Assembly (NCBI GenBank): GCA_963772365.1
Contig: CAVYXA010000005.1
Location: 64,001-128,000 of the forward strand
DNA from: an uncultured Verrucomicrobiae bacterium
GTDB taxonomy: Bacteria > Verrucomicrobiota > Verrucomicrobiia > Chthoniobacterales > UBA10450
Direction: 5' to 3'
DNA length: 64,000 nucleotides
The notes beneath the pieces were generated by a model that was not told the DNA's origin, did no database searches, and saw only the letters and a program-made list of their open reading frames with translations. Shown one piece after another: positions 3,276-42,449 of the stretch (position 1 is its first letter; every line of letters starts with the position of its first letter). Made by a program: the position numbers and the translations under genes.

Positions 3276-3345
3276 AGATAGAGATCGGAGATCGCAGTTA
3301 GGGACTATTAACGGACTACGGACCACCGACCACTGACGACAGACT
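3276..3345 (+). repeat. 7-nt periodic degenerate repeats (GAGATCG; GACnACn)
   Basis: gagatcg-gagatcg; gactacg-gaccacc-gaccact-gacgaca. Confidence 0.7.
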
Positions 3346-3451
3346 TCTGGCAGATGGAAGATTGTCCGCCTTCGTCCGGCTGCTGCCGAACTACGGCGAG
3401 GCGAGAGCTACTGCGCGATAAACAGACCGCCGCTACAGCAGCTACAGCAAT

Positions 3452-4588
3452 ATGAGACCGGAGCGCATCATTTCGCCAGACGACCGGATTCTGGTGACTG
3501 GATCGAGCGGCTTTATTGGAACAAGGGTTGTCCGGATTCTGCTCGAATATGGGTTCACCAGAGTTCGCTGCTTCGTTCGTCCCTCCAGCCATCTCGGCCG
3601 GCTCAAAAAGGTTCTCAGCGAATTCGATCTCGGAGAGAATGTTGAGATTGTTACCGGCGATCTTCTTTCCGCTGAAGATTGCCGGAAGGCGACAGAAGGA
3701 GTGTCGCTGATTTATCATCTGGCGGTTGGGATCGAGAAATCATTCGCCGGCGCGTTCATGAATTCGGTCTTGACCACTCGAAACCTGATTGAGGCGCTCC
3801 TTGAGGTTGGCAAACCGAAGAGATTCATAAACGTCAGCTCATTCGCAGTTTATTCGAACCTGCTCTTAAACCACGGAAGCGTGTTGGATGAAACCTGTGA
3901 ATTGGAGGATGCCTCGCAGGATCGCTTTGACGCCTACGGATTCGGAAAGCTGAAACAGGAGCAGTTAGTCAAAGAGTACGGAACAAAGTGTAATCTACCC
4001 TATGTCATTGTTCGTCCGGGTTACGTTTTCGGACCCGGCAAAAAAGAACTCAGCGGCCGGGTCGGTATCAAAACATTTGGGCCGTTCATCCAGGTAAACG
4101 GTTCCCATAGGTTGCCGATTACCTACGTGGACAACTGCGCTGAGGCGATCGTCCTCGCGGGTCTCAAACCGGGCATCGACGGCGAAGTCTTCAACGTGGT
4201 GGATGATGAGCTTGTGACTGCCCGGAAATTTTTGAGAGCATGCAAACGAGTGAAACGCTTTCGTTCGGTCCGCGTTCCTTATTGGGTTGGGTACAGCGGA
4301 TGTTTCCTTTGGGAAAAATATTCCCGATGGTCCAAAGGCCAGCTTCCTCCGGTTTTTAATCGACGGCGATGTGTCGCCGAATGGAGGAGCCAACGGTACT
4401 CCAATCAAAAGCTAAAGGACCGTGTCGGGTGGAAGCCGCGCGTGCCAATGAAGGAAGCGATGGCGCGTTTTCTGAGTCAGTTCGAGTCAGAAAACGCGCA
4501 GAGGTCAGATATCAGAGATCAGAGGTCGGGAATCGGATATCAGTCGACAGATGTCAGACTTCAGCAGCAGAACGGCAATGCAGATTAA
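3452..4588 (+). CDS. NAD-dependent epimerase/dehydratase
   Basis: ILVTGSSGFIG, YGFGK (YxxxK), VRPGYVFGPG; C-terminus runs through repeat DNA. Confidence 0.9.
   Translation: MRPERIISPDDRILVTGSSGFIGTRVVRILLEYGFTRVRCFVRPSSHLGRLKKVLSEFDLGENVEIVTGDLLSAEDCRKATEGVSLIYHLAVGIEKSFAGAFMNSVLTTRNLIEALLEVGKPKRFINVSSFAVYSNLLLNHGSVLDETCELEDASQDRFDAYGFGKLKQEQLVKEYGTKCNLPYVIVRPGYVFGPGKKELSGRVGIKTFGPFIQVNGSHRLPITYVDNCAEAIVLAGLKPGIDGEVFNVVDDELVTARKFLRACKRVKRFRSVRVPYWVGYSGCFLWEKYSRWSKGQLPPVFNRRRCVAEWRSQRYSNQKLKDRVGWKPRVPMKEAMARFLSQFESENAQRSDIRDQRSGIGYQSTDVRLQQQNGNAD
4499..4558 (+). repeat. TCAGA-type heptamer tract (left arm)
   Basis: cagaggtcagatatcagagatcagaggtcggg... Confidence 0.85.
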
Positions 4589-4967
4589 GTCAGCGAAGGA
4601 TCTAATTGTTTATCAGAAAGCGTACACGCTGGCGATGGAGATCTTTCACGTAAGCAAAAGCTTTCCTGCCGAAGAGAAGTATTCGCTCACGGATCAGATC
4701 CGCCGTTCCTCTCGGTCGGTTTGTACCAACATTCGAGAGGCATGGGCCAAGCGAAGATACGAGGCGCATTTTGTAAGCAAACTATCGGACTCCGATGGTG
4801 AAAACGCCGAGACGGATACCTGGCTGGATTTTGCGCGCGATTGTGGATACCTCCCGACACCTGATCACACCCTTTTGATAGACAAATGCAGTGAAGTTGG
4901 AGCGATGCTTGGCAGCATGATGAGCAATCCTTCGTCGTTTATCATCCGCTCGGCTTCTGACGCCTGA
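4578..4967 (+). CDS. Four helix bundle protein (23S rRNA IVS protein / Avd-like family)
   Basis: DLIVYQKA...FPAEEKYSLTDQIRRSSRSVCTNIREAW; ATG at 4578. Confidence 0.92.
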   Translation: MQIKSAKDLIVYQKAYTLAMEIFHVSKSFPAEEKYSLTDQIRRSSRSVCTNIREAWAKRRYEAHFVSKLSDSDGENAETDTWLDFARDCGYLPTPDHTLLIDKCSEVGAMLGSMMSNPSSFIIRSASDA

Positions 4968-5002
4968 CCTCTGACTTCTGATCTCTGATTTCTGACATCT
5001 GA
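4956..5002 (-). repeat. TCTGA-type heptamer tract (right arm, inverted)
   Basis: ctgacctctgacttctgatctctgatttctgacatctga; reverse complement matches 4499-4530. Confidence 0.85.
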
Positions 5003-5007
5003 GGACA

Positions 5008-6214
5008 ATGCTACGCATTGCCATAATCGGTTGCGGCAAGATTGCCGATGACCACGTGCAGGCTATCCAGAGGATTTCGGATTGCGAAATCGTGGCTGTC
5101 TGCGATCGGGAACCGCTCATGGCGAAACAGCTTGGCGAACGCTTTGGTGTGCCGGAATGCTTTACCGATTTGAAAGAGATGCTTCGAGTGACAAAACCCG
5201 ACGTTGTTCACATTACTACGCCGCCGCAAAGCCATTACTCTATTGGCAAACAATGTTTGGAAGCGGGAAGTCATGTTTATCTCGAAAAACCGTTCACGAT
5301 CACAGCTGATTCAGCTGAATCTTTAATCCAACTAAGCGAAAAACTGCGCAGGAAAGTAACGGTCGGGCACAACGGGCAGTTTACGCTCGAGATGATGGAG
5401 ATGCGCCGACTAGTCAACCGAGGATTTTTAGGCGGGGAGCCAGTTCATTTGGAAAGTTACTTTTATTATGACCTCGGTGATGGCAGCTCTACGACCTCGC
5501 TGTTATCTAATCCGGAGCATTGGGTGCATCAATTGCCTGGCCGACTACTTCACAATGTTATTAGCCACGGAATTGCCAAGATTGCTGAGTTTCTCGACGA
5601 CGAAATTGTCGAAACAATAGCCATAGCCAATAAGAGCCCGCGGATTCAAGCAGTTACTGGAGCGGAAATGCTTGATGAATTGCGCGTTCTGATTCGGGAC
5701 AAGCGTGAAACGACGGCGCTATTCTCTTTCTCGACGCAGATCAAAGGGCTCAACCAGTTGCGTCTTTATGGATCGACTGGATCTATCAGCGTAGATCATT
5801 TCGCCGGAAGCGTGGTTCGAAGTACAGAATCGATCGTATAAGAGCTACCTGACCTATGTTATTCCGCCGCTCCTTGCCGCGCGCGAACATCTCAGAAACG
5901 CGTGCATCAACATGATCAATTTTGGCCGAAGAAGGCTCTACCAGGATTTCGGAATGAAAGAGTTGATTGAGCGATTCTATAACAGTATCCGATCGAACGG
6001 CCCGCCGCCAATTCCCTATCGCGAGATTCTGCTCACCGCGCGGATCATGGATTGTATCTTCCGCCAAATCTACCCCAACCGGACGACGGAAGACGGACGA
6101 CAGACGACGGAAAATGGGGAGCAAGACGGAGTACGGACGGTCGACGACCGAGTACGGACGACAGCGGACGGAGATCGGAAAGAGGTCCTCGGTCATCCGT
6201 CATCAGCCATCTGA
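5008..6214 (+). CDS. Gfo/Idh/MocA family oxidoreductase (frameshift near 5830, likely assembly error)
   Basis: IAIIGCGKIA, HVYLEKP; continues in the 5912-6214 frame; tail is repeat-encoded. Confidence 0.85.
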
Positions 6215-6262
6215 TTGCTCCGGCTGATCGCTGATCGCTGACTTCTGACCTCTGATTTCTGA
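6080..6262. repeat. GACGG-type heptamer tract with inverted partner, then CTGA tract
   Basis: ggacgacggaagacggacgacagacgacgg ... gtcctcggtcatccgtcatcagccatctga ... ctgatcgctgacttctgacctctgatttctga. Confidence 0.8.
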
Positions 6263-6272
6263 AACAAGCACC

Positions 6273-7232
6273 ATGCGCTACGTGTTGATTACTCCCGCGC
6301 ACAATGAGGCGCGTTTTATTACTAAAACGCTCGACTCAATGGCTGCGCAGACCCTCTTGCCCGAGCGCTGGATCATCGTCGATGATGGTTCAACGGACAG
6401 GACCGCGGAGATCGTCGGGACTTACGTACGGCGTTATCCTTGGATAGAGTTGATTCGGCGTCACCAACGCAAGGACCGAAACTTTGCCGGCAAAGTCCAT
6501 GCTTTCAACGCCGGATATTCGTCACTTGTCACTCATCACCCATCACTCTCCTTCGACGTCGTCGGGAATCTGGATGGCGACCTTTCTTTTCCGCCGGATT
6601 ATCTGGAGTTCCTGATACAAAAATTCGCCGAAGATTTCAGACTCGGTGTGGCTGGCACTCCGTTCACAGAGGATGGCGGTTACGACACCGCCAGGGATAG
6701 CTTTGAAGGAGAAAATTATGTCGCCGGTGGTTGCCAGTTATTCCGGCGCGCATGTTTCGAGGAGATCGGCGGCTACGTCCCCAATGCCGCCGGTGGTTTG
6801 GATTGGATCGCAGTCACCATGGCGCGGATGAAAGGATGGAAGGTGCGCTCCTTTTCGGAAAAACGATTTCATCATTACCGAACGCTGGGGACAGCGCAGC
6901 GGAATCAGTTCTCTGCTCTATTCTCCTACGGGGAAAGGGCTTATTACCTCGGCTGGTCGCCGATCTGGCAATTCGTTCGCTGCGTTTATCGCATGACTAG
7001 AAAACCGATCTTCTTCGGTGGCCTGGCCCTGCTCTCTGGTTACTGCTGGGCTGCTGTAAAGCGAACCAAACGCCCGGTGTCATCGGAAATCATTCGCTTC
7101 CATCGCCGCGAACAAATACGAAGACTTCGCGGCATTCTCGGACGCGTGTTGCGACTCAAAAAGATCGACAATTTTCGTTTAGAGCGTTCGGCTTCCGTCT
7201 CCGATCTTCCATCTTCGATCTCCGGTCGTTAA
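6273..7232 (+). CDS. Glycosyltransferase family 2
   Basis: LITPAHNE, IIVDDGSTD, DGD (DxD). Confidence 0.92.
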   Translation: MRYVLITPAHNEARFITKTLDSMAAQTLLPERWIIVDDGSTDRTAEIVGTYVRRYPWIELIRRHQRKDRNFAGKVHAFNAGYSSLVTHHPSLSFDVVGNLDGDLSFPPDYLEFLIQKFAEDFRLGVAGTPFTEDGGYDTARDSFEGENYVAGGCQLFRRACFEEIGGYVPNAAGGLDWIAVTMARMKGWKVRSFSEKRFHHYRTLGTAQRNQFSALFSYGERAYYLGWSPIWQFVRCVYRMTRKPIFFGGLALLSGYCWAAVKRTKRPVSSEIIRFHRREQIRRLRGILGRVLRLKKIDNFRLERSASVSDLPSSISGR

Positions 7233-7270
7233 GAATGCAGTCATCCGTCGTCAATCATCGGTCGTCTGGA
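7195..7270 (-). repeat. Heptamer tracts at a gene junction
   Basis: ctccgatcttccatcttcgatctcc; gtcatccgtcgtcaatcatcggtcgtc. Confidence 0.7.
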
Positions 7271-8712
7271 GACAAAGTCTCTCGCGTCCTAAGAAACTTC
7301 GTCAATTGGCTCGATAACTACGGCGACACTTCTTGGGATCACCAAAGTTTTTTTGCGGGACCGACGGGACGCATGGCAAAATCATTGTATTATCGACATC
7401 GATTCATCGGAACTGCGGCAGTCGCTCCGATGATTTTGTGTGAAGCCATCCTGCCCTCGGCAAGGCGACTGTTCCATCATCCAATCCGGTTCCCGATCTC
7501 CGATGCGCATTACGCGATGGCTTTGCCTTTCTTTATGAAACGACTGGAGAGCTTCATTGCCTCACGAAAGCAATTCACTTTTTAGATGAACTAAAAAAGT
7601 CGCGCAGTCCTGATTTCGAAGATTACTGCTGGGGTTATCCATTCGATTGGGTCACGCGCAAAGGAACAATTAAGGCACACACACCGCTGATCACGACAAC
7701 GCCGTACTGCTATGAGGCGTTTTTGCAAGTAGCGAAGCTGCTTGGTCAGAGATCAGAGATCAGAGATCAGAGATCAGATCGTGAATCTGAGGAATCAGCG
7801 TCTTCTGACTTCCGACCGCTGACATCTGGCCTCTGTGCGATGGACATCGCCGAGTCCATCGCGCGGCACGCAGCCAATGACATCAAAGACTTTCCAACGT
7901 CGGCAGCGGGCAGCAGTTGTTCTTACACGCCTTATGATGAAGGCGGAGTCATTAACGCTGCGGCGTATCGTGCTTTCCTGCTGACGAGCGCATCACAGGT
8001 TTTTTCCAATGACGATTACTGGAAGATCGGTGAGCGAAATCTGAATTTCGTTCTGGAGAACCAAAACCCCGATGGTTCCTGGTTTTATGCCGTCGATGGC
8101 GTGCGCAATTTTGTCGATCATTATCACACATGCTTTGTCATGAAGGCGCTGGCCAAGATTCACGATCTGACCGGGCATGAAGCGACTTTTACGGCACTCG
8201 AAAAGGGCGTTCAGTATTACCTCGAAAATCTGTTTGCGGAGGATGGAATGCCGAAGCCTTTTGCCAAGGCGCCGCGGCTGACCGTTTACAAACGGGAGCT
8301 CTACGACTGTGCCGAGTGCATCAATCTCTGCCTGTTGTTGCGCGACCGGTTCCCCGAGCTGGACACCACGCTGGAAACCGTCGTTCACGGAATGCTGAGC
8401 GACTGGATCAAGCCCGACGGCTCGTTCCGCTCGCGCCGGTTGCATCTTGGCTGGGACAACGTCCCGATGCATCGCTGGGGGCAGTCGCAGATGTTTCGCG
8501 CGCTCGCGCTCTATTTGCGCGAAACATCTGCGCAAGAGGACAGAAGTCAGAGGACAGGAGTCAGAGGTCAGATGTCAGCGGTCAGCGGTTCGCAGGGCGC
8601 GAACTATACGGCGGGAGGTCGTGAGAATCGATCTAGGGAAGCCGGCGACTCGGTTTTGGTGAAGACCGAGAGGTCAGAAATCGGTCGCAGCCGTCGGCCA
8701 TCAGTCGTCTGA
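7235..8712 (+). CDS. EPS-locus alpha/alpha-barrel (prenyltransferase/six-hairpin-like) protein, frameshift near 7520
   Basis: WGYPFDW, QNPDGSWFY, VDHYHT; the 7235 and 7723 ORFs join on restoring one G (atg[g]gctttg). Confidence 0.6.
7746..7834. repeat. In-frame inverted heptamer arms inside the CDS
   Basis: TCAGA x5 at 7-nt period, then tctgacttccgaccgctgacatctggcctctg. Confidence 0.85.
8540..8712 (+). repeat. TCAGA heptamer tracts encoding a low-complexity C-terminal tail
   Basis: cagaagtcagaggacaggagtcagaggtcagatgtcagcggtcagcgg. Confidence 0.8.
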
Positions 8713-8717
8713 GTTAG

Positions 8718-10500
8718 ATGCGCGTCATGAAGATCTTGTACGCTAATCAGGTGTCGGAAAACGTAAAGCGTCTGAGCGCGCTGGCGGAGTGCCTTGGAAT
8801 CGAGACGGAACTCATAAACATTGGAGGAAATGGATCGTTCCTGACGCTGTTTGGGAATGGCTCACAAAAAAGAGGGATCGCTTTGGATGTAGCGAGCCTG
8901 AAGCACCGCACGAGTGGCGACGAACTGCGAAAGACGCTCGTTTCCGGTAGCGTGGCCAGTCTGCTCATTCTTGTGACGGACAACGACGAAGCAACCAATC
9001 GCTTCATCCGAGATCTAACGGCCGGAGAAATATCCGGTGTCGATCCGCAACGTTCGGTTGGAAAAGTATCATTCCCAGCATCTGGACAAGCGCTAAACCA
9101 TGATTTGTCTTCGCAGATATATCCGAGACAAAGTAAGGATGCGATTACGTTGAGGATTGCGCCTCCTTCAACTGCCGAGGTTGTAATGGAACTGAACGGT
9201 GCGGCCGGCTTTGCGCATTTCCGCCATGGTCGCGCCGAGTTTTTTATTTGGAGCACGACAGAAGTATTCGACATGAATCGCCGACTAGCAGCCGAGCTGG
9301 AGTTTGAACTCGCTTCCGATGAATATATTCCGGGTATCATCTTTCTCAGATCTGCATTCGGACAGCGGTGCTGGCATAACCCCGTTTCCGGCGCGGGAAT
9401 CGTCATCGACGATCCGTTGCTCAAGGAAAATTACGGCTTTATCGACTTTCGAAAACTTTTGGAGTCTGCCCGGAAACATCAATATCACGTCACCCTGGCT
9501 TTTATTCCCTGGAACTATTGGCGTAGCCGTCGCAAGACAACCCAGTTATTTCGGGATTATTCAGATTGCTTCGATATTTGTGCTCATGGGTGCGATCACA
9601 CTGACAGCGAATTCAGACACGGAAGTTACGACGAACTGCTGAGCCGAAATTTCATCGCCAGCAACCGAATGGCTACGCACGCTCTGCGCACCGGCATGGA
9701 GTCGGCAGCCCCTCATGGTATGTCCGAAGGAGCAATATTCGACCAAAGCGATGCAGGCTTTTGCCGATAGCAGGCAATTCATTGCGCTGATTTGCACTGC
9801 CTGCATGCCGCGCGACTTGGATCGGCCCGCACTAACAGGTTCCGATCTACTCCTTCCAGCGCAGGATTCCTTCTCAGGGTTCCCGGTTTTCAAGCGGCAT
9901 TACTCGAATGGGATGCAGACAGGTGTTTTCGCGATGGCGTTGTTCCTAGGGAAGCCAGCAATTCTGGTCGAGCATCATCAGTTTTTCCGCGGGGGACCGG
10001 CCGGTGCGGAGGAGTTCGCCAGACTGATCCGTGAGATGCAGCCGGGGTTGCGATGGAGGTCGCTTCAACAAACGGTGATGCGCACACATGCCCGACGCCA
10101 AATTTCCCATGACCGGTGGGCGATCCGATTTTTTACCGATCAGTTTCTTTTGGAACCGGTTCCGGAAAGCGGAATTCAATACGAGTTTATTCGAAGAGTT
10201 CCGGAGCCGACGCGTGTCGAATGCGTGCGTGTGGCAGGCAAGGAGATTCCATTCCGCAAACGGGATGGATTCCTCACATTCGAAACGGAATTGCGAGAGC
10301 CGGAGACCGTCCTTGTCGAGGTTAAAGTCACTCCCGCCAGACCAAGCAAATCGGCCTCAAACGGCGTCAAGCACCATACTCGGGTGGCACTTCGGCGCGG
10401 TCTGTGCGAAATGAGGGATAATCTGGTCGCGCGAAATCGATTTGCCGTTAACGCGGGTCGACGTCTGATGAAGACTTTCGGGCAGAAAGCGCGTCAATGA
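8718..10500 (+). CDS. Polysaccharide deacetylase-like hypothetical protein (frameshift near 9710)
   Basis: IVIDDP, LAFIP, HGCDHT motifs; the 8718 and 9715 ORFs overlap. Confidence 0.55.
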
Positions 10501-10612
10501 TCAGAGGTCTGAGGCCAGCGGTCAGAAATCACAGATTCGCCGCGGCGAATCCATCTATTGGCGGATCAGAAGTCAGATCACGTTGTAACGTTGTAACCAT
10601 TTAACGATTCAC
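10500..10612 (+). repeat. TCAGA tract with nested 31-nt double hairpin, then 8-nt TAAC repeats
   Basis: gattcgccgcggcgaatc palindrome; gttgtaac-gttgtaac-catttaac. Confidence 0.8.
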
Positions 10613-10623
10613 TTTCGCGAAGC

Positions 10624-12514
10624 ATGTGCGGCATAACAGGCCAGTTTAACTTTATCCGGCGCGAACCGGTCGAACCGGACACGATCCGGCGCATGACTGC
10701 GACGATCGTTCACCGCGGACCGGACGATGAAGGGTATTACATTGCCGGGGGCATCGGGCTGGGCGTTCGCCGATTGTCTATCATCGATATTGCGGGCGGG
10801 CATCAGCCGATGTCCGACGCGGAAGAGACTGTCTGGGTCGCGTTCAATGGTGAGATTTACAATTTCAAAGAACTTCGCATCGAACTCGAACAGCATGGTC
10901 ACCAATTCCGCACCAAGTCCGATACGGAGGTGATCATTCACGGTTATAAACAATGGGGAACGGAGATCTTGAATCATCTCAATGGGATGTTCGGACTCGC
11001 CATTTGGGACGTGAAAAAACAGAGACTCGTCGTGGCGCGCGATGCCATGGGCATCAAGCTAATCTATTATAGGATCGACAATGGACGGCTGACCTTTGGG
11101 TCCGAAATCCGGCCGCTTCTTGCCGCAGACGATTCCAAGCCGGATGTCGATCCGGTCGCGCTGAATCTCTTTCTTCGTTTTCGTTATACGCCATCGCCGT
11201 TAACCATTTACCAGGGCATTCGAAAACTCGCGCCCGGCACGATGCTGGTTTGCGAAGATGGCAAGTGTGAAGAGAAACGCTGGTATAACTTTGTCCGAAC
11301 TCCGTTTCCGGAACACAAGGGCGAACAAGAAAGACGCGAAGAACTGCTGGAGTTGTATCGCGCGGCGGTCCGGCGACATTTGTTGAGCGATGTCCCAGTT
11401 GGGATTCTTCTCAGCGGTGGGCTCGACTCGGGATTGCTCCTGGCGCTGATGAACGAGCAGGGCGGTCCCTGGCCGGCTTATACGATCGGCTACGGCGAAA
11501 CATTCGATGACGACGAGCTGGTCGATGCAGCCGAAACGGCGAGGGCATTGGGTGCGCGGCATGTCACGGTAAAACTCGATCGAGGCGAGTTTGAAAGATC
11601 GCTGCCTAAAATCGTGGAATGCCTCGAGGAACCGATTGCTGCTTCTTCCATTGTGCCGATGTATTTTATCTGTGAGCGGGCACGACAGGATGTAAAGGTC
11701 GCCTTGATCGGCCAGGGACCCGACGAACTATTCGGCGGCTACAAACGTCACCTCGGTGTGTCACTATGGCGATTGGTGGCGGCTTCTACCGAAGAGTGTC
11801 CGGTCCGCTTTTGGGTATGCGGTAAACGGGCTGCCCCGCAACGAGACTCTCAAACGCGGCGTCGCTTCGCTGGGGACAAACGATCGGTTGAAACGATACC
11901 AGGATGTATTCGCGCTGGCGCCGGCCGAGACGATCGACGGTTTGTTTCAGGATGGCCTATTTCGAAATGGCCGCAGCCATGGTTTGGCCGATTACTGGAG
12001 CGACCTCGTACCCCAAATGGTCCATACCGATGAGCTGGGCGGATTTCAGCTGCTCGAGATCCGGTCGTCGCTTCCAGACGAGCTGCTCATGTATGCGGAC
12101 AAGCTATCAATGGCCCACAGCTTGGAGGCGCGTGTGCCGTATCTCGACCGGACCGTGGTGGAATACGTCCAGAGATTAAACGCCGATCTCAAGATTCGGA
12201 ACGGCAGCCGGAAATGGCTCCACCGGCAGGTCTGCGCGAAATATTTGCCGCGCCGGATTCTCAAGGGAAAGAAGCGTGGCTTCGCCGTAAACGTGGTGGA
12301 CGATTGGTTTCGCTCATCGCTGAATGGGAAATTCCAGGAATCGCTGCTCGACGAAGGTTCGCTCATGTTCGGCCTGCTCAAGTCCGGAGCGATACGGGAA
12401 CTGGTGAACGACCATCAATCCGGGCGTCAGGACAATCACAAGGTGCTGTTCAGCCTGGTGATGTTCGAGCAGTGGCTGCGCAGCAAAACATCACTTGCTG
12501 GCAAAAATCAGTAG
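10624..12514 (+). CDS. asnB: Asparagine synthase (glutamine-hydrolysing)-like amidotransferase, frameshift near 11760
   Basis: MCGI, HRGPD, FNGEIYNF, LSGGLDS, DKLSMAHSLEARVP. Confidence 0.92.
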
Positions 12515-12519
12515 GACGG

Positions 12520-15808: not shown

Positions 15809-16810
15809 ATGAAAAGCCCAATATTTATTGTGGGGCCGCACCGAAGCGGGAGCACGCTTTGGCATAATCTCATTGCGATGTGTCCAGGCGTCATGAGATT
15901 GGGCGATCCGCGGTTTCTCGCGCGGCGGGGACAACTCGATTTCAGATTCTTTCTTAACACACAGGCTCGTAACCTGGCGACGATCGAAGAGAGCGAAACT
16001 CTGGTCGAGCTCTGTTTCTCGAAAAAGCGCATCCCAGGTCTGGAAGGCGCTTTCTGGAGATTTGAAGGCATTCCCGCGGTGGACGATCCCGAATTGCGAA
16101 AGGAAGTTGCTCGCCGGATTTTTGAATCGGATCGGAGCTCGGGAACGATCGCGCGGATTTTGATTGAAGAGATCACGAGGTTTAGCGGATGTGAGCGGGC
16201 CTGCATCAAGTTTCCTGTCGATGTTGCGCATATCTCGGAGCTGATGGAATGGTTTCCGGAGGGGAAGGTTGTTCATATCACGCGGGATCCCCGAGCCTTG
16301 GCGATGTCGAAGAGCAACGATCCGTCCGGAACGGCGATTAAACTGGTGAAACATCCGCGGTTTGCCTGGCTGATAAGAAAGGCGAGCATCTGGGCGACAA
16401 TTGTTCAGTATCGCCTCAGTGCGCAAGTGCATCAGCAGTTTCAGGGGCGAACGAATTACCAGTTGTTTCGATATGAAGATTTATTGGCCGATCCGGAACA
16501 GATTTTGCGTGAGCTTTGCGAATTCATCGACACCGATTTTCAGGAAGAGATGCTTGAACCGCAAATGGGCCGCCATGAACATCAGCCGTCGAGCCTGACT
16601 GGCAAACGGCAGAAAGCGTTCGACCCAGCCGCAGCGGACCGATGGAGAAATGTGATTCCGCGAATAGATTACTGGCTGATCACCTGCTTTACGCACGGCA
16701 GCATGAAAACATTGGGATACGGAGACAGACGTCAGAAGTCACAAGTCAGAAATCAGCACTCGAAACACGACAATAGCTCGGACGTAGTTGAGTATTTCGC
16801 TGACCGCTGA
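15809..16810 (+). CDS. Sulfotransferase
   Basis: IFIVGPHRSGST (5'PSB), RDPRA..S (3'PB), RYEDL. Confidence 0.92.
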   Translation: MKSPIFIVGPHRSGSTLWHNLIAMCPGVMRLGDPRFLARRGQLDFRFFLNTQARNLATIEESETLVELCFSKKRIPGLEGAFWRFEGIPAVDDPELRKEVARRIFESDRSSGTIARILIEEITRFSGCERACIKFPVDVAHISELMEWFPEGKVVHITRDPRALAMSKSNDPSGTAIKLVKHPRFAWLIRKASIWATIVQYRLSAQVHQQFQGRTNYQLFRYEDLLADPEQILRELCEFIDTDFQEEMLEPQMGRHEHQPSSLTGKRQKAFDPAAADRWRNVIPRIDYWLITCFTHGSMKTLGYGDRRQKSQVRNQHSKHDNSSDVVEYFADR

Positions 16811-16851
16811 CCACTGATCGCTGTCTTCTGTCCTCCGTCGTCGGTCCTCTG
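16726..16851. repeat. Inverted heptamer arms (TCAG / CTGA grading into CTGT and CCGT)
   Basis: cagacgtcagaagtcacaagtcagaaatcagc ... gctgaccgctgaccactgatcgctgtcttctgtcctccgtcgtc. Confidence 0.8.
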
Positions 16852-16872
16852 TTTTGTTTTGGAATCTAATTT

Positions 16873-16963
16873 GGAGAGGTGGCTGAGTGGTTTAAGGCAG
16901 CAGCTCGAAAGAGCTGCTATACGGCAGCGGCCGTATCGGAGGTTCGAATCCTTCCCCTCTCCG
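16873..16963 (+). ncRNA. tRNA-Ser-like RNA with a non-canonical anticodon arm (7-bp stem + GAAA tetraloop)
   Basis: Acceptor GGAGAGG/CCTCTCC, G73, Ser-type D-arm GCTGAGTGGTTTAAGGC, 7-bp variable arm, TTCGAAT T-loop; anticodon arm GCAGCTC-GAAA-GAGCTGC; no encoded CCA. Confidence 0.85.
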
Positions 16964-16971
16964 CTCTTCCA

Positions 16972-17082
16972 AAACTGAAATACTGAAAACTGAAACGCTG
17001 AAAATTCCAGCATGTCCGCCTTTCCCGCTTTTGTGTTCTCTGACTTCAGTTTTTCCTTTTATCAGAGTTTCAGATTTTTAGC
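16972..17082. repeat. CTGAAA-type 7/8-nt repeats with inverted TTCAG partner
   Basis: ctgaaata-ctgaaaa-ctgaaacg-ctgaaa ... ttcagtttt...tttcagatttttagc. Confidence 0.75.
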
Positions 17083-17089
17083 GTAACTT

Positions 17090-23165: not shown

Positions 23166-23219
23166 TGGTAGGAATGGACCGCCGGGCCGTCCGATTGTGA
23201 CAAAGTCACAGGTCTCTGA

Positions 23220-23248
23220 TTTAACGTTGTAACGAGGTAACAATTCAA
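23220..23248 (+). repeat. 8-nt TAAC repeats
   Basis: tttaac-gttgtaac-gaggtaac-aattcaac; same family as 10582-10612. Confidence 0.65.
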
Positions 23249-23258
23249 CCCTCCTCTA

Positions 23259-24251: not shown

Positions 24252-24368
24252 TTGTCTCGGAGATTAGCGATCAGAAGTTCGCCCCGGCGAATCCGTCCAC
24301 GGGCGGATCAGATATCGCGGTCGACTGTTCCGCCCGCGGTCCTCAGTCCTCCGTCCTCAGTCATCCGA
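24141..24368. repeat. Heptamer tracts with two inverted copies of the 31-nt double-hairpin element
   Basis: 24149-24179 and 24278-24308 are near reverse complements; gtcctca/gtcctcc tract follows. Confidence 0.8.
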
Positions 24369-25561: not shown

Positions 25562-25562
25562 G

Positions 25563-26389: not shown

Positions 26390-26824
26390 ATGAGAGACTA
26401 CACCAAGATTAAAGCCTGGCAGCTTTCCGACGATCTGACAGTTGCGGTCTATAATATCACACGATCTTTTCCAAAGGAGGAAGTGTACAGTCTGACCAAC
26501 CAATTGCGCCGGGCTTCGTATTCCGTGCCGGCAAACATTGCCGAGGGAGCATCGCGCGAAAGCAAAAAGGATTATCTTCATTTCCTTTATATTGCCCGCG
26601 GGTCTTTATCCGAAGCGCAATATTTCATTCACCTGTCTCGGCGACTTGAGTATCTCTCAGAAGAAGGTGCAACGGAACTGGACGCGCAAACCAAGGTGGC
26701 TTTCGGGTGCTTACACGGCTTGATTCAAGCCGTAGAAAAAGAAACAGGTAAGGTCGGAAAAGCTATCGCCGCTATTACCAGCCTGATGGTTATCGGCTTC
26801 GCTCGGTTTTCGACGGGTCAGTAG
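26390..26824 (+). CDS. Four helix bundle protein (second copy)
   Basis: AWQ...FPKEEVYSLTNQLRRASYSVPANIAEG...FLYIARGSLSE. Confidence 0.93.
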   Translation: MRDYTKIKAWQLSDDLTVAVYNITRSFPKEEVYSLTNQLRRASYSVPANIAEGASRESKKDYLHFLYIARGSLSEAQYFIHLSRRLEYLSEEGATELDAQTKVAFGCLHGLIQAVEKETGKVGKAIAAITSLMVIGFARFSTGQ

Positions 26825-26850
26825 TCCGTCGTCAGTTGTCGGTAGTCGTC
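26817..26850 (-). repeat. GTnGTC heptamer tract (inverse of GACnAC)
   Basis: gtagtcc-gtcgtca-gttgtcg-gtagtcg. Confidence 0.75.
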
Positions 26851-28303: not shown

Positions 28304-28307
28304 TGTC

Positions 28308-28432
28308 AAAAAGCTGAAACGCTGACATGCTGAAAAGCTGAAAGGCAGCCTCCTTCGCCCATGCTACGGCGAGCCAGGGAAAACCTGAGAAGCTGAAAAG
28401 TTAAGATGAAGCTGGTAGATCGAAGATCGTAG
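28308..28432 (+). repeat. GCTGAAA 8-nt repeats and GATCG repeats
   Basis: gctgaaac-gctgacat-gctgaaaa-gctgaaag. Confidence 0.75.
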
Positions 28433-28447
28433 TTTTGTTCCAAATGC

Positions 28448-29431: not shown

Positions 29432-30406
29432 ATGGACTCTTCTTCAGCAAAGGCGGGAAATCTTTCGGCGAGGGCGCCGCAAGATGCACGCGATGCGCCC
29501 GCACACGAGCCGTCAGGCAGTCCGCTCCCCGATACTAAATCTCGCGCTCATCTGATCGGCTTTGGAATCTGCGTGGCGGTTCTGATCGCGGCTTTCATCA
29601 GGCCGCTGATCGGGCTGGCCGTTTATGCTGCCCACAGCAATCTGAATTCGCACATTTTGTTGGTCCCGTTTGTGACTGCTTATCTATTACACATTCGTCG
29701 CGATCCGCTTTCGACGAGATTTAAATCCTCACCGCTTTGGGCGATCGCCCCGCTGATCGTCGCGCTGCTGAGCTTAAGCGCTGCATTTGTCTGGGACACC
29801 GAACTGAGTCGAAATGATCACTTCACGTTGCTGGCTCTCTCGTTTCTTGGATTCCTGGTTGCAGCCGGATTTTTATTCCTGGGACGCGCCTGGATGTGGT
29901 CGGCCGCGTTCTCAGTGTTCTTTCTCATTTTCATGATACCGATGCCGGATGCCATGGCGAACGCATTGGAGACGGCATCGAAGTTCGCCTCGGCCGATGC
30001 GGCCAGTTTCTTCTTTAATCTGACTGGCACACCGGTTCTGCGAGATGGTTTGGTTTTCCAGTTGCCGAATATCGCGATTCAAGTCGCCCAGGAATGCAGC
30101 GGTATTCGATCGAGCTGGGTGCTGTTCATCACCAGTTTGCTGGCGGCAAATCTTTTTCTACAAAGCCCATGGCGGCGCGCGGCACTAGTGGTGTTCGTTA
30201 TTCCGCTCGGGATTATCCGGAATGGTTTTCGCGTCTTCGTGATCGGCACGTTGTGCATCCGATACGGGCCGCAGATGATCCACAGTATTATTCATCGCCG
30301 CGGCGGGCCGTTCTTCTTCGCGCTTTCGCTGATTCCGCTGTTTCTGTTGCTCTGGTGGCTACGGCGGGGCGATGACGGAGCACGGATGAAGGCGGAAGAC
30401 AGATAA
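29432..30406 (+). CDS. Exosortase (possibly VPDSG-CTERM-specific)
   Basis: SHILLVP, VAQECSGIRS (Cys), NGFRV (Arg), IIH (His); multi-TM. Confidence 0.92.
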   Translation: MDSSSAKAGNLSARAPQDARDAPAHEPSGSPLPDTKSRAHLIGFGICVAVLIAAFIRPLIGLAVYAAHSNLNSHILLVPFVTAYLLHIRRDPLSTRFKSSPLWAIAPLIVALLSLSAAFVWDTELSRNDHFTLLALSFLGFLVAAGFLFLGRAWMWSAAFSVFFLIFMIPMPDAMANALETASKFASADAASFFFNLTGTPVLRDGLVFQLPNIAIQVAQECSGIRSSWVLFITSLLAANLFLQSPWRRAALVVFVIPLGIIRNGFRVFVIGTLCIRYGPQMIHSIIHRRGGPFFFALSLIPLFLLLWWLRRGDDGARMKAEDR

Positions 30407-30500
30407 CGGTGGGCGAAAGATGGCGAGATTACAGAGGACCGAGGATAGATGACGGCACAGCGAGACTACAGTCCGGCGTCGGAAAGGCGAAGGATCGAAA
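30372..30500 (+). repeat. Purine-rich GACGG/GAGGA heptamer tract
   Basis: gacggagcacggatg...gaagacagataacgg...cagaggaccgaggatagatgacgg. Confidence 0.6.
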
Positions 30501-30508: not shown

Positions 30509-31258
30509 TTATCCAACAGTTGTGCGGCGCTGATGAATAAATTTCCGATGGAAGAGAAAGAGCCCACCCAAGCCCAGTGTCAGCAAGGCGACAGTCGTTC
30601 CGCTGTCTGGAACAGGAACAAGAATCAACTGGTCCTGTACGTATCCAGTCAAGTTAGGATTTATCCACAAGTTGAGAACACCGACACCAAAGCCACGGTG
30701 AACGTTATCGGCCATCGCGTGTGCTGCAGTGCCAAATCTAGTCACGACTGCCACCTCGAATTTATTACTGGGGTCGTAACTAAGGCCGGCCTCTCCCTCG
30801 AGCCACCACATGGCGTTTTGCAGCAGCCCAGCATCCGCGTTGGTATACAAATAACTCGTCAAACCATCGAACGATGTGTTTCGAGCGAAGTTAGAATAAA
30901 GCCAGGCAGTACCTCTCGAGAGGGGGTCGCTCGGACCGCCGCTTCCTCCCAAAAGCGCTGCATCGCTAATAGCATACGTATATGTAGAACCGGGATTAAA
31001 ATGCTCATTGTATTCCACGCAGAATGTTTCGAAGCCCACGCCATGCCCCGTGTTAGCGATCGCCGACGCCCCGTAGCCCATCGAAGCGGGATTCAGAGTT
31101 GTAGAATACGCGTTGAATTCTCCTCCCAGACCAGAGTGATGGACCCCATAATCTAGAATCAGCGTGTTCGCGGAAACCTTTGGAAGAAATAAGGATATCG
31201 ACGCAAAGGCGATCACGGCGACAGAAAGGAGCTTCGCGGAGTAAGTCAGAGTTTTCAT
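30509..31258 (-). CDS. VPDSG-CTERM sorted protein
   Basis: Signal peptide; TFCVE and QxAxW motifs; VPDSGTTVALLTLGLGGLFLFHRK. Confidence 0.9.
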   Translation of the reverse strand: MKTLTYSAKLLSVAVIAFASISLFLPKVSANTLILDYGVHHSGLGGEFNAYSTTLNPASMGYGASAIANTGHGVGFETFCVEYNEHFNPGSTYTYAISDAALLGGSGGPSDPLSRGTAWLYSNFARNTSFDGLTSYLYTNADAGLLQNAMWWLEGEAGLSYDPSNKFEVAVVTRFGTAAHAMADNVHRGFGVGVLNLWINPNLTGYVQDQLILVPVPDSGTTVALLTLGLGGLFLFHRKFIHQRRTTVG

Positions 31259-34733: not shown

Positions 34734-34856
34734 CTATTGATATTATGAGAATTATAAGCAGCAGCCGTGCCGATTCGGGGCGATTTTCAAAAGCGCGAGC
34801 CCAAAGCGAATCCGTTGGAAAGAGGGGCGAACGGTGATCCGTAATGCCGTAACAAA

Positions 34857-36970
34857 ATGAACTGGAACATCTTGCTGGCATTTATTGCCGCTGGATTTAG
34901 CGCCGGGTTGGCTTTGCTCGCAACGGTGCGCAGCCGCCGCCCCATTACTCGCTGGTCTTTCAGCGCTGGCATGCTGCTGTTCAGCCTCGAGGCTTTGCTG
35001 GCAGCGCTCAGTTTCGAAGCTGCTTCTCAGGAGAATGCAGCGTTCTGGCAAAATCTTAGTCTGCTCGTGAAGATGTTTCTCCCAGGAGTATGGTTTCTTT
35101 TTAGTCTCACCTATTCGAGAGCCAACTATCGCGAATTTCTTGGCCGGTCGCGGCTGTTGCTTGCCGCCCTGTTCCTGCTGCCCCTTCTCTGGCTCGTCAC
35201 GTCGCGTTTCCCGCTCCTCCAAATCGTAACTTATAAGGAACCGCTCGAAGGCTGGGGCTTGCATTTCAGTCAAACAGCGAAAATTCTCAACGGGCTTTTC
35301 CTGATCTCGATGATCCTGATTTTGACGAACCTGGAACGGACGTTTCGCGCGGCCGTTGGAACCATGCGATGGCGAATTAAGTTCCTGGTGATTGGACTTG
35401 CGATTATTTTTGGTGCCCGAATTTACAGTGGCACACAGTCTCTCCTGTTCTCGGGTACAGTTTGGGCGAGCTTAATGTCAAGACTATTGCCCTCGTAATC
35501 GGATGCTGCCTGATCGCTGCAGGTTATTTCAGAAGCGGTTTTGCCGAGATCGATCTTTATCCGTCGCGCGCCGTCCTTCACACTTCGGTAACGGCGTTGT
35601 TGGCCGGAGCCTACCTGTTCGTTGTGGGAGTACTGGCCCAAATCGTTGCTCGGTTTGGTGGCGCAGCGACATTTCCGATCGCAGCGTTTTTGGTCCTCGT
35701 CGGAATTGCAGCGCTGGCGCTGCTACTGCTTTCCGAGCGGCTTCGACAAAGCTCGCAGTTATTTGTTAGCCGCCACTTCAAAAGACCGCAGCATGATTTC
35801 CGACAAATCTGGACTCGATTTGCTCGGGCTTCATCCGCCCCGCTTGATCCAGAGAGTCTCAGCGCGACCGTGGCCCGGCTCATCTCGGAAATTTTCGGGG
35901 CGCTCTCGGTCTCGGTTTGGCTGGTAAATCCGCAACAGGATCGGCTTGTGCGTGCAGGATCGACATCGGATGCGGAACCAAAGGGTGATGCTGATCTGCC
36001 TGACTGGATCGACGCGGAACAAAAGGCGCTGATTGAGCTGGGCAAAAATCCGCGCCCGTTTCAACCAGCCAGGACGAACAGCGTCTGGCCAAAATCTCTG
36101 ATGCCGGTTACCCGCGGCCGATTCCGGACCGGTGGCGATCCAGTTGTTGTTCCGCTGGTAACCGGAGATCAAACGCTGGGGATCATAGTGCTGGCCGACC
36201 GAGTCCGCGGCCAAATCTATACGCCGGAAGAAATGGATCTGCTCAAGTGCATTGGCGATCAGGTCGGGGCGAATCTTTTGAACCTGCGCCTCACTCGCGA
36301 AATCGTGGAACGAAAAGAAGTCGAAGCATTCCAGTCCATTGCCGCCTTCTTTGTTCACGATTTGAAGAATGCCGCGTCCACGCTCGGGCTTATGTTGCAG
36401 AACCTGCCGATTCATTTCGATGATCCTGCCTTTCGCCAGGATGCCTTGCGCGGAATTGAAAGCGCGGCCGGCCGGATGAACCAGCTAATCGAACGAATGA
36501 ATAGTTTTCGTTCCGAATTGCGGCTCGATCTTGTCGATCTCGATCTAAATTCTTTGATTCAGGAAACACTTGGAAACTTGAACGGCAGTATTCGCGGTGA
36601 GGTTGTCACCAATCTCGCTGCGCTACCATCGATATCGGCAGATCCAGCTCAGCTTCAAAGCGTGATCACAAATCTCGTCCTAAACGCAAATGATGCCCTC
36701 GTGCCTGACGGGCGGATAGTCGTGGAAACGGCTCGCCAGGAACCATGGGTCAGATTCTCGATTTCGGACAATGGTTGCGGCATGAGCGAAGAATTCGTGA
36801 AGACTTCCCTGTTTCGACCGTTTCGGACGAGTAAGAAAAAAGGGCTCGGTATTGGTATGTTTCAGGCAAGAATCATTGTCGAAGCGCATCGCGGGAAAAT
36901 CCAGGTCGAGAGCGCTGTCGGCGCGGGAACCACGTTTCGAGTGCTCTTGCCGATAACAGCCAAAACCTGA
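34857..36970 (+). CDS. prsK: PEP-CTERM system sensor histidine kinase (frameshift near 35460)
   Basis: Multi-TM N-terminus, GAF, FFVHDLKN, GLGIGMFQ. Confidence 0.9.
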
Positions 36971-36998
36971 AATGCTGAAAATCTGAAAAGCTGAAATC
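36962..36998 (+). repeat. CTGAAA 8-nt repeats
   Basis: ctgaaatg-ctgaaaat-ctgaaaag-ctgaaatc. Confidence 0.8.
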
Positions 36999-37073
36999 AA
37001 ATATGCGGCTTAACTTGGAATTTCGGCGAGGTGCAAAACGGTACTCTTCTGCCATCATTCAGTATTTAACTTA

Positions 37074-38462: not shown

Positions 38463-38551
38463 TGGCGGGTGGCTCTGAATCCGTGGCATGCGCTCGGTTT
38501 TGTGCTTCAATATCAACCCGTCGCTTCGCTAAACCCCCTTCCAGGTTACTT

Positions 38552-41500: not shown

Positions 41501-41747
41501 GGCGCTGACCTTCGGCGAGATCAGTTATCAGCGAAAGGAATTTCCCTATGCGATCCAGTTATTCCAGCAAGCCGCTGCGAAGCAGTCGCTACCGGCCAAA
41601 GATCTTTTTTATCTGGGCATGGCTCAATTACAAACACGCCAGGCCGCAAATGGCCGCGAGACGCTGGATCGCGCGTTGAAGGCTGGCCTGTCGGGTTCAC
41701 TAGCCGACGAAGCAAAGAAACGCCTCGCTGAACAGCCGCAGCGGTAG
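38552..41747 (+). CDS. prsT: TPR lipoprotein, PrsT-like (frameshift near 39262)
   Basis: Lipobox FSGC, many TPRs, LNNLSY...DSLGW; follows prsKR. Confidence 0.8.
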
Positions 41748-41838
41748 GACGGTGGCAAACAGGTTGCATGTTGAAGCGCAGCCCGGCTTGGACGTGATCC
41801 TTGGCCGACCGGTAAATATGGTTTACAATCGCGTTAAG

Positions 41839-42096
41839 ATGAAGGCGACGCTCGAGATCCCCGAGCCTCTTTTCCGAAAAGCGAAATCTATTGCCGCGCG
41901 GCAGGGACGGACCCTTAAGCAGTTCGTGAACGAGGCGTTATCGGAGAAACTCGCACGGGCAGACGGCGCGATTAACCGGCAAAAGCCGTGGATGGGATTG
42001 GCAGGCAGTTTAAAGCATCTTCAAGCTGAGAATCGCCGAATCGAACGCGTTATCGAGGCGGAGTTCGAAACCATCGAGTCCGAAGACCAACAGTGA
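41839..42096 (+). CDS. RHH antitoxin (VapB-like)
   Basis: MKATLEIPEPLFRKAK..AA.QGRTLKQFVNEAL; overlaps a PIN gene. Confidence 0.75.
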   Translation: MKATLEIPEPLFRKAKSIAARQGRTLKQFVNEALSEKLARADGAINRQKPWMGLAGSLKHLQAENRRIERVIEAEFETIESEDQQ

Positions 42097-42344
42097 TTCT
42101 TGACACCAACGCGCTCTCGGCCTTTGCCGAAGGCGTTCCGCTAGTAGTGCAACAGGTCGGCGCAACCGATGATCTGCACGTTCCGGTAATTGTGCTGGGC
42201 GAGTACGTTTTCGTATCGCGACCTCGCGACGGCGGCGCGAATATGAAGAATGGCTGGCCCGCGGCCCGGCAGCACGACCTTCCAATTCTGAGCCGGGACA
42301 GTGACTTCGATGCTGTCCCACATCCCACCCGTCTTTCCTGGTAG
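42093..42344 (+). pseudogene. vapC: VapC PIN toxin with internal deletion
   Basis: MILDTNALS, VIVLGE and ILSRDSDFD are present; the central region with the D..IAA motif is missing; 83 aa. Confidence 0.7.
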
Positions 42345-42449
42345 CATTCAGCGTTTCAGTTTTTCCCTTGGCCCGCCTGCCTGCTCGCGAAAGCCTTCGG
42401 AGTAGCCTCGCGCGAAGGAAGCAGCCTTTCAGATTTTTCTCGAGTTTTC

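Follow-up and report, generated by a model that had tools for sequence, protein, structure and literature searches.

The rRNA intervening sequence (IVS) of Coxiella is 428 nt in length, carries an open reading frame (ORF) for the protein S23p and has a terminal stem of 28 bp (PMC4990558). It contains tandem GACAGAT heptamers, in numbers that vary between strains, and mapping placed the RNase III cut at the first of them; solved members of the protein's family are described as a homopentameric toroid (PMC4990558). Here, a similar arrangement is described outside rRNA, in a 64,000-nt stretch of the genome of an uncultured Verrucomicrobiae bacterium (GenBank assembly GCA_963772365.1, contig CAVYXA010000005.1, positions 64,001 to 128,000 of the forward strand; hereafter the window). 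Short degenerate tracts of period 7 or 8 stand at its gene junctions and on both sides of two genes of the S23p or four-helix-bundle (4HB) family. It is likely that these tracts are the terminal arms of IVS-type 4HB cassettes, together with cargo-less or single-arm relatives of such cassettes, living in operons.

Intergenic heptamers have been known, without explanation, from cyanobacteria, Xanthomonas, Geobacter and Beggiatoa, the cyanobacterial ones being called 'STRR'. The S23p/4HB family is large and has, to our knowledge, no known role outside diversity-generating retroelements (DGRs). In Geobacter metallireducens, class 3 sites consist of five tandem MTYCTGA heptamers and form opposite-strand pairs, 70–110 bp apart, between operon genes (PMC2700814). 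The intergenic heptamers of Xanthomonas (GGGAATC) and of Nostoc/Anabaena (GGGGA(C/T)T) were studied as G-quadruplex formers (PMC4692102), and TAACTGA repeats were described in marine Beggiatoaceae, cyanobacteria and Bacteroidetes (PMC4679880).

Detection and Placement of the Tracts

An earlier reading of the window, made from its letters and ORFs alone (the sequence-only reading), had named 19 sites with degenerate 7/8-nt repeats. All 19 were found to exceed the 45–64 kb background in period-7/8 self-similarity, 18 of them lying above the maximum of 2000 random 300-nt samples of that background and the site at 42.35 kb above its 95th percentile only; three of the 19, at 23.2, 30.4 and 42.35 kb, have weak scores (13–14 of 21). 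With a tract called as a 21-nt window of at least 75% self-match, a detector that is blind to arrays below about four units, our own scan of the window returned 16 period-7 and four period-8 tracts. In 20 first-order Markov shuffles, the mean number of tracts was 0.15 (period 7) and 0.05 (period 8), with a maximum of 1, and periods 6 and 9 gave one tract and none, respectively. Arrays of period 7, 8, 14 and 21 were reported by Tandem Repeats Finder at the same places. Windows scoring at least 16/21 numbered 143 (period 7) and 35 (period 8) within 3.2–42.5 kb, and none were found in 1–3.2 kb or in 42.5–64 kb. Every tract of the scan lies below 45 kb, in agreement with the earlier statement that the region beyond it has none.

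The G+C content of the window is about 52–55%. Genes on the plus strand form a nearly unbroken run from ~3.4 to 28 kb, with a sugar epimerase, an oxidoreductase, glycosyltransferases, asparagine-synthase-like enzymes, sulfotransferases, a flippase and a sugar dehydrogenase among their predicted products; an exosortase (EpsH), VPDSG-CTERM proteins and then a kinase/sigma-54 regulator pair and TPR proteins are also encoded, and housekeeping genes occupy both strands of the 45–64 kb region. The described position at gene junctions was borne out, with 14 of the 20 tracts lying at most 60 nt from an ORF boundary as compared with 20% of random placements; the remaining six lie 79–504 nt from a boundary, mostly within ORFs. 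The inverted pairing of tracts was recovered for 4499/4956, 7746/7800, 16721/16796, 16971/17040 and 24145/24271, but is weak for 6080/6183 and 26293/26815.

Two Four-Helix-Bundle Cassettes

The cassettes are built from a left heptamer (sometimes octamer) arm, a TIGR02436 gene and a right arm which is the reverse complement of the left. Their architecture, spread, placement and turnover can be read directly from the loci described here. The window has two such genes (TIGR02436/PF05635), designated 4HB-1 and 4HB-2, each with tracts on both sides; all coordinates below are on the plus strand unless stated otherwise. In cassette 1, the left arm, (TCAGANN)n at 4496–4564, overlaps the 3′ end of the epimerase ORF (3452–4588), and 4HB-1 follows at 4551–4967 (PF05635 E = 7e-34; TIGR02436 104 bits, cut-off 24), its likely start being the ATG at 4578 since relatives align from residue 7–10. 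The right arm, (NNTCTGA)n at 4954–5004, contains the 4HB-1 stop codon and ends 3 nt ahead of the ATG of the next gene (5008). The two arms are 77–90% complementary, pair with each other in the minimum free energy (MFE) and centroid structures alike, and close a predicted RNA fold with a z-score of -4.2, equalled by 0/100 shuffles. Cassette 2 has a left arm of period 8 (GACnnGAC...) at 26293–26352, read through by a DUF218 ORF (25359–26375), then 4HB-2 at 26390–26824 (PF05635 E = 9.5e-35; TIGR02436 116.8 bits, cut-off 24) and a right arm of period 7 (GTAGTCC GTCGTCA GTTGTCG GTAGTCG) at 26815–26850, which ends 10 nt ahead of the ATG at 26861.

TIGR02436 is the 'four helix bundle' family, earlier named '23S rRNA intervening sequence protein'. 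Both window proteins match only 23S_rRNA_IVP and bAvd in Pfam, and the solved relatives, PDB 2gsc, a Xanthomonas campestris protein, and 2rld, have five chains each as deposited. The gene has ~130 codons and its product is highly conserved and strongly basic; in 52 sequences, 62 columns reach at least 85% identity, ten basic residues included. A defence system was considered and rejected, PADLOC giving zero matches for both 4HB proteins.

Tract Density and Arm Architecture among Relatives

Relatives of 4HB-1 numbered 231 in a scan of one genome per species; the 80 best loci (59–83% identical, 963 kb in total) were kept. Their labels span ~12 phyla, including Verrucomicrobiota, Planctomycetota, Acidobacteriota, Thermodesulfobacteriota, Lentisphaerota, Chloroflexota, Bacteroidota and Bacillota; most are from metagenome-assembled genomes, in which binning errors can inflate the cross-phylum spread. 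The cassette and flanks of loci L014 and L015 are identical, although these loci are labelled Limisphaerales and Alphaproteobacteria, which is likely to be a binning or labelling problem and not recent transfer.

Within the 963 kb, 386 tracts were detected at period 7, compared with 1–44 at each other period from 4 to 12. The density of period-7 tracts is 7.3/kb at up to 100 nt from the 4HB gene, 0.7 at 100–200 nt and 0.11–0.46 beyond. Among the 76 4HB genes with enough flanking sequence (a count which includes two loci from the 4HB-2 query, by which the homologous L032 locus was matched via DNA similarity), tracts were found on both sides of 44, on one side of 26 and on neither side of six. 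The enrichment near 4HB genes for which the sequence-only reading had proposed a test is thus seen across many phyla, with a tract within 200 nt of 70/76 genes.

Left flanks are (CAGAGGT)-like and right flanks (ACCTCTG)-like throughout the relatives. The consensus unit is C-[A/G]-G-A-R-R-T (213 tracts, 1242 units), with a core C-R-G-A and three less constrained positions, and further arm families have the units CCGAGGT, CAGGGGA, GACGGAA, GACCACA and TAGTAAG. Left and reverse-complemented right consensus sequences of a cassette differ by a mean of 1.23 mismatches, as against 2.25 for permuted pairs (minimum 1.81 in 200 permutations). The arms have a median length of 5.7 units, ranging from 4 to 36 with a detection floor of about four, and the full cassette spans ~470–750 nt (median 539 nt). 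The number of units differs between the close relatives L031 and L040. Duplex energies of 150-nt flanks were uninformative, those of shuffled flanks also being ~-76 kcal/mol.

On the 4HB protein tree, which is poorly resolved and weakly supported, arm family clusters with 13 changes as compared with 19.9 when shuffled (0/200 as low) and the phylum label requires 22 changes among 48 rows; arm family therefore tracks the lineage of the 4HB gene and not the host phylum, which, by sequence, fits with arms and gene travelling together. Distinct paralogues with distinct arm families occur within one genome in L032, L034 and the window. Solo tracts resemble the cassette arms of their own locus (mean distance 1.76) more than those of other loci (2.20), with 0/300 permutations as low.

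Three other accounts of the arms were rejected as general rules. A fixed length of five units is not supported by the arm lengths. The left arms could provide the 4HB gene with Shine-Dalgarno arrays, but their distance to the start codon ranges from 3 to 115 nt. A role of the right arms as three-frame stop signals, true for TCTGA, TAAC and CTGAAA, fails for CCCCTGC, TCGGACC and CGACTTC, families in which there is no stop codon.

It is possible, if tentatively so, that these data reflect a protein-repeat system resembling TRAP (an idea of the sequence-only reading), in which a putative 4HB pentamer would bind one heptamer per subunit in single-stranded RNA or DNA and the dispersed tracts would be trans-acting sites for the translation, stability or processing of their neighbours. 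The short core C-R-G-A at fixed spacing is a trait of such systems, and the proximity of tracts to 70 of the 76 genes, the likeness of solo tracts to arms of their own locus, the separate arm families kept by paralogues of one genome and the conserved, basic protein are all in keeping with it, as are the five chains of the solved relatives, described as a homopentameric toroid (PMC4990558), and the five heptamers present in 15/16 Geobacter sites (PMC2700814). However, the covariation would follow just as well from gene and arms being inherited together, the arm lengths (median 5.7 units, up to 36, above the floor of about four) are not fixed at five, and the protein has no PADLOC match and only the two Pfam matches given above. 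No experiment on repeat binding by a 4HB protein was found in the literature searched. This alternative is compatible with an origin of the tracts as cassette arms and may be its missing half.

Relation to 23S rRNA Intervening Sequences and Plasmid-Borne Members

Thirty plasmid records with a TIGR02436 gene were found, ten of which were examined (27–56% identity). Arrays are present on both sides in nine of the ten loci, seven being inverted and two direct. One of them, L085, is an unannotated 4HB ORF in a 23S rRNA gene on plasmid AZO_p2 of Azospirillum lipoferum 4B (NC_016586.1 13792–15339), the host gene matching large-subunit (LSU) rRNA with 917.7 bits. Its arms consist of CAGAGGA/CGGATGA/CGGAGGA units, which are the TCAGAnn and GACGGnn families of the window, and form a perfect stem with a z-score of -9.2. 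L085 is a classical IVS as it lies within the LSU rRNA gene.

A cassette is also present on plasmid pNPUN02 of Nostoc punctiforme PCC 73102 (213841–214248). Two other, distant members were observed on plasmids of Pseudanabaena galeata. In L087 (NZ_CP112875.1 46268–46627), the 4HB gene stands between cas6 and cas4, flanked by 17 and 10 direct heptamers (CTAAAAG / CCAAAAG), and in L088 (NZ_CP112878.1 114540–114929) it follows cas2 in a cas operon, without arrays.

Operon Setting, Gain and Loss among Syntenic Relatives

Cassettes with two neighbours (n = 61) are mostly co-directional with both (47), while eight are antisense to both and six mixed. Typically, the left arm starts 0–8 nt past the stop codon of the upstream gene, and 0–20 nt separate the end of the right arm from the downstream ATG. 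Of 145 neighbour ORFs, 102 were scanned, with duplicates and some short ORFs left out and grouping by Pfam names; 38/102 are polysaccharide genes and 64/102 are not, the latter including genes for E1 alpha/beta subunits, AcrB, ABC transporters, anthranilate synthase, IF-2 and toxin-antitoxin systems. The locus restriction put forward in the sequence-only reading is not supported as a general property, since the relatives' cassettes occur in such unrelated operons. In Xanthomonas, similar heptamer tracts are dispersed genome-wide (PMC4692102).

Loci L002, L003, L006 and L032 have genes in common with the window at ~70% DNA identity. The window carries a cassette between the epimerase and oxidoreductase genes, where L002 has a 5-nt spacer and L003 has gene-less TCAGANN and TAAC tracts. 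Between a gene designated gene X and asnB, a cassette is present in L002, in L003 (twice) and in L006 (inverted); in the window, this junction consists of a tract of left-arm type, other ORFs over 2 kb and a module of tracts. The orthologue of 4HB-2 in L032 is located at the histidine kinase/response regulator junction, where the window has only a CTGAAAnn tract, and a second 4HB cassette with GACGGAA arms follows the dehydrogenase gene of L032 at a place where the window has tracts only. Just two detectable tracts occur in 20 kb of the orthologous locus of L002; since the tracts are nearly absent there, they are not regulatory elements conserved in these operons. In L003 (9900–12130), the 3′ end of gene X is present twice, each time ahead of a 4HB cassette, which indicates local duplication of gene end plus cassette.

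Such turnover could also be expected if the tracts were sites of homology or microhomology for the insertion, swapping, duplication and inversion of genes, making polysaccharide loci mosaic, an account also raised in the sequence-only reading, which we regard as unlikely. The differing contents of one junction among syntenic relatives, the 2 kb of other ORFs between tract modules at the gene X/asnB junction of the window, the duplicated unit of L003, the inverted cassette of L006 and the 38 polysaccharide genes among 102 neighbours all agree with it. However, the arms are degenerate and short (30–60 nt), an identical architecture is found in rRNA and in unrelated operons, where shuffling has no obvious benefit, and in Xanthomonas the locations of heptamer sites were reported to be more conserved than those of control sites (PMC4692102).

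The inverted arms might instead allow the small cassette to flip, giving phase variation of polysaccharide operons, and here the opposite orientation in L006 as compared with L002 and L003 at one junction, the eight of 61 antisense cassettes and the common surface polysaccharide context would be explained. This is very improbable, as no recombinase adjoins the cassettes, many of them lie in non-surface operons or in rRNA, and none of the four promoter-like sites in 3–18 kb (shuffled mean 10.9) falls in or at an arm. Least credible is a neutral origin of the tracts as functionless products of replication slippage, which would favour units of 7 nt and let them accumulate where harmless: unit numbers do differ between L031 and L040 and between Coxiella strains (PMC4990558), and among long simple-sequence repeats heptamers reportedly occur most often in many genomes (PMC4679880, PMC4692102), but flank density and arm complementarity already disfavour this reading and slippage cannot account for complementary arm pairs round one gene family in ~12 phyla, for the same families in rRNA IVSs or for the precise placement between stop and start codons.

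Proposed Mechanism and Its Difficulties

If the tracts are arms of IVS-type cassettes and relatives of such arms, the cassette would move or be exchanged as DNA, recombination at arm-like junction tracts being one possibility. Once the operon is transcribed, its two arms would pair into a long stem, which RNase III would cut as in the experiments on rRNA IVSs. The 4HB mRNA would thereby be set free and the polycistronic message divided, and the number of units would drift by slippage. Our preferred guess is that the repeat arrays are bound by the 4HB pentamer. Tracts of arm type also exist where there is no 4HB gene, two of them tolerated as in-frame inserts, in gene X and in the sugar dehydrogenase gene.

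A number of observations weigh against this proposal. Only ~5/20 of the window tracts serve as cassette arms. Solo tracts, over all loci and the window, have an inverted partner within 400 nt in 40/233 cases, a direct partner in 63 and no partner in 130. The arms of cassette 2 pair weakly or in part (z-score -1.4), and the folds at 7735–7845, 6070–6215, 10495–10620, 28300–28440, 3265–3355 and 42340–42450 are no better than those of shuffles. Among the relatives, the flanks form at least 30 inter-flank base pairs in the MFE fold in 40/52 cassettes (median 41), but with the 3′ flank reversed this was still so in 20/52 (median 24), an only moderately lower value and an imperfect control of inter-arm pairing. 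The arrays of L083 and L087 are direct and not inverted, and the cross-phylum spread is subject to the binning errors mentioned above. The in-frame inserts cannot be cut efficiently, because they must stay intact as mRNA. No transposase or recombinase was found, nor any target-site duplication, for which occupied and empty sites are too diverged (~70% identity) to be read; for this reason, the mobility of the cassette is inferred from its distribution only.

Other Tract Sites in the Window

The junction before the epimerase gene has a cluster at 3276–3345 of AGATCGn units, followed by CGGACTA/CGGACCA/CCGACCA/CTGACGA units, within which the scan called a tract at 3309–3345. A cargo-less module at 6078–6262, between the oxidoreductase and GT2 genes, consists of (CGGACGA)n, a weakly complementary (TCATCCG)n and then (NNCTGAN)n, the last ending ahead of the ATG at 6273; the same junction has short tract remnants only in L002 and L003. 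An AGATCGn-family tract (7192–7227, read CTTCCAT/CTCCGAT) lies in the final codons of the GT2 gene. Within gene X, an arm-only hairpin of (TCAGAGA)x5 against (NNTCTGA)n forms an in-frame insert (7739–7835; fold z-score 0.15), which is missing from the orthologues of L002 and L003; a different insert is present at the same point in L006. The 3′ tail of gene X is a (TCAGANN)n tract (8535–8595), 95% complementary to 7814–7835, and in L002, L003 and L006 a 4HB cassette has its left arm at the matching position. The module before asnB (10500–10611) has TCAGANN units, the palindrome GATTCGCCGCGGCGAATC and a period-8 tract, (NNNNTAAC)x3, and a TCAGANN plus TAAC module of this kind was found at another junction in L003. 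The palindrome GATTCGCCG(C/T)GGCGAATC was observed beside TCAGANN units at two junctions (window 10535–10556 and 24160–24300).

Further downstream, the 3′ end of a sulfotransferase gene has a hairpin at 16721–16852 (fold z-score -2.2). Its right arm was said to grade between repeat families, and this proved real (16798–16852), the tract mirroring its partner arm in the predicted hairpin. An (CTGAAANN)x4 tract with an inverted partner (16971–17075) directly follows a tRNA-like gene, and the hairpin at 16960–17085 has a z-score of -3.1, equalled by 0/200 shuffles. A weak (NNNNTAAC) tract (23215–23250; 14/21 at period 8) is immediately upstream of the ATG at 23259. The region 24145–24369 has a long inverted repeat (24145–24186/24271–24312; 42 nt, 81% complementary), spanning the stop/start overlap of the GT9 and GT1 genes, and a tract of GGTCCTC AGTCCTC CGTCCTC AGTCATC, with a fold z-score of -5.5 for the hairpin at 24135–24320.

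The in-frame insert of the sugar dehydrogenase gene (27191–27352) is ~52 codons long and starts with an AGATCGn tract (27205–27238). It makes up residues 111–164 of the protein, query residues 110 and 165 flanking it where PDB 3g79 has residues 139–142. Directly after the dehydrogenase stop codon, a period-8 (AAAAGCTG)n tract is followed by AGATGAAG/AGATCGn units (28309–28432). A weak GACGGnn-like tract (30355–30470; 14/21) is at the 3′ end of the exosortase gene, a CTGAAAnn tract of (CTGAAANN)x4 (36961–36998) overlaps the histidine kinase stop codon, and weak reverse-complement CTGAAA-type units (13/21) occur on the minus strand at 42346–42440.

Transcription signals were tried as an identity for the tracts and rejected. 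No promoter-like sites were found at tracts in the scan of 3–18 kb. Terminator-like sites numbered 19 in the same region (shuffled mean 17.1), one of which overlaps a tract; it is on the minus strand (17013–16995), in the CTGAAANN tract.

Neighboring Features

The tRNA-like gene (16873–16964), which has a long variable arm, stands between two tract hairpins within the polysaccharide genes. ARAGORN gives it an 8-nt anticodon loop with a 4-base anticodon, 'gaaa', and it is below the Rfam gathering thresholds (tRNA-Sec 37.3 bits vs 47). Gene X (7268–8595), the oxidoreductase gene (5023–6115) and asnB (10624–12493) each have a frame switch with respect to their L002/L003 orthologues, and the overlapping ORFs at 8718–9770 and 9715–10500 may be a further case; these switches are probably assembly indels or pseudogenes. 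Quadruplet decoding was rejected, as TTTC is absent from both of the +1 sites that were read (5824–5830 and 11759–11784) and gene X is shifted by -1. Homology searches with gene X and ORF 8718–9770 gave leads only, and one ORF of the 2-kb gene X/asnB stretch has no more than a deacetylase-like lead.

A NusG/KOW paralogue (44944–45636) beside the exosortase/polysaccharide locus may serve the long operon as a specialised antiterminator. VPDSG-CTERM proteins are encoded at 30509–31258 (minus strand), 42608–43252 and 43644–44327, near the EpsH exosortase gene (29432–30406).

Significance and Novelty

Heptamers within a 4HB-carrying rRNA IVS were already known from Coxiella (PMC4990558). The arm-bracketed 4HB arrangement outside rRNA, in operons of many phyla, appears to be new; a link of TIGR02436 genes outside rRNA to flanking heptamer arms was not found in the literature searched (subscription journals and bioRxiv supplements excluded). 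IVS-type elements thus seem to colonise not only rRNA but also operons, among them cas and polysaccharide loci.

A wider proposal, which we advance as doubtful, is that TIGR02436 pentamers are the cognate partners of tandem-heptamer arrays throughout bacteria, reading C-R-G-A-N-N-N units in register, with the gene travelling between its own sites and seeding arm-only copies at gene boundaries, a system of repeats plus protein that would be akin to REP/RAYT or TRAP. If this is true, the cassette colonises heavily transcribed, processing-tolerant RNA, namely rRNA helices and operon junctions, and the rRNA IVSs, the Geobacter pairs, the Xanthomonas and cyanobacterial heptamers and the tracts of the window are one phenomenon. 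The arm-bracketed arrangement itself gives both the heptamers and the 4HB family a testable hypothesis, in terms of RNA processing and protein-repeat recognition. For annotation, it is of note that the tracts put spurious tails on ORFs and in-frame inserts in proteins.

Comparison with Known Repeat Systems

RAYT genes are flanked by repetitive extragenic palindromic (REP) sequences, and Avd of DGRs is pentameric and nucleic-acid-binding. Rickettsia palindromic elements are hairpin-forming repeats inserted in frame in protein-coding genes and translated, as the in-frame tract inserts of the window genes are in frame, but they belong to another sequence family, with no 7-nt periodicity and no associated 4HB gene. 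The window proteins have a fold or family homologous to that of Avd (PF22296, bAvd-like, E = 5e-13), but score 40 and 26.4 bits against the NF033474 equivalog cut-off of 80, and no reverse transcriptase domain was found among the 69 window ORFs scanned. Inverted arms, one trait of miniature inverted-repeat transposable elements, are present, and for the other, a target-site duplication, the occupied and empty sites (~70% identical) are too diverged to be read. The REP/REPIN-RAYT systems also combine many short repeats, dispersed between operon genes, with a few copies of a gene (PMC3116915). The cassettes resemble them, the 4HB gene being flanked by repeats that are also dispersed elsewhere, but the 4HB protein has no nuclease or transposase signature and no HUH/Y1 match in Pfam, and the repeats are tandem arrays and not single palindromes.

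Closer likenesses are seen in heptamer systems. The Geobacter class 3 motif MTYCTGA is that of the window's right arms, and octamer classes exist there too; these sites were read as binding sites of IHF/HU type ('global regulator sites') and their pairs have no cargo (PMC2700814). No link to a 4HB gene was made in that paper, neither its main text nor the 13 supplement files searched containing 'S23', 'four-helix' or 'intervening sequence' (PMC2700814). The Xanthomonas and Nostoc heptamers are likewise found mostly between co-oriented ORFs near the upstream stop codon, vary in length between relatives and, in Xanthomonas, form 70–75 convergent pairs per genome, but have another unit sequence and are dispersed genome-wide; the available part of that paper has no occurrence of 'S23' and no S23p/4HB link (PMC4692102). 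The TAACTGA repeats are direct repeats just upstream of start codons with stops in all three frames, and their patchy phylogenetic spread suggests horizontal transfer (PMC4679880). The NNNNTAAC and CTGAAANN tracts of the window behave like them, although unit and period differ, and the TAACTGA repeats are mostly direct and had no associated gene proposed in the text available (PMC4679880).

The rRNA IVSs come nearest. An S23p/4HB ORF is carried by those of Coxiella and Leptospira (PMC4990558) and by L085 of A. lipoferum 4B. In common with these elements, the cassettes have the same protein family, complementary terminal arms of CAGA/CGGA heptamers, a unit number that varies between strains and a comparable size (median 539 nt among the relatives vs 428 nt in Coxiella). 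They differ in that the window cassettes are located between protein-coding polysaccharide genes, no rRNA having been found in the window, in the strong conservation of the 4HB gene, whereas the Coxiella ORF was considered decaying by its authors (PMC4990558), and in the numerous arm-only tracts beside the cassettes. Judged by sequence features, the window cassettes agree with an IVS in every respect except rRNA location, the stem of cassette 2 being weak.

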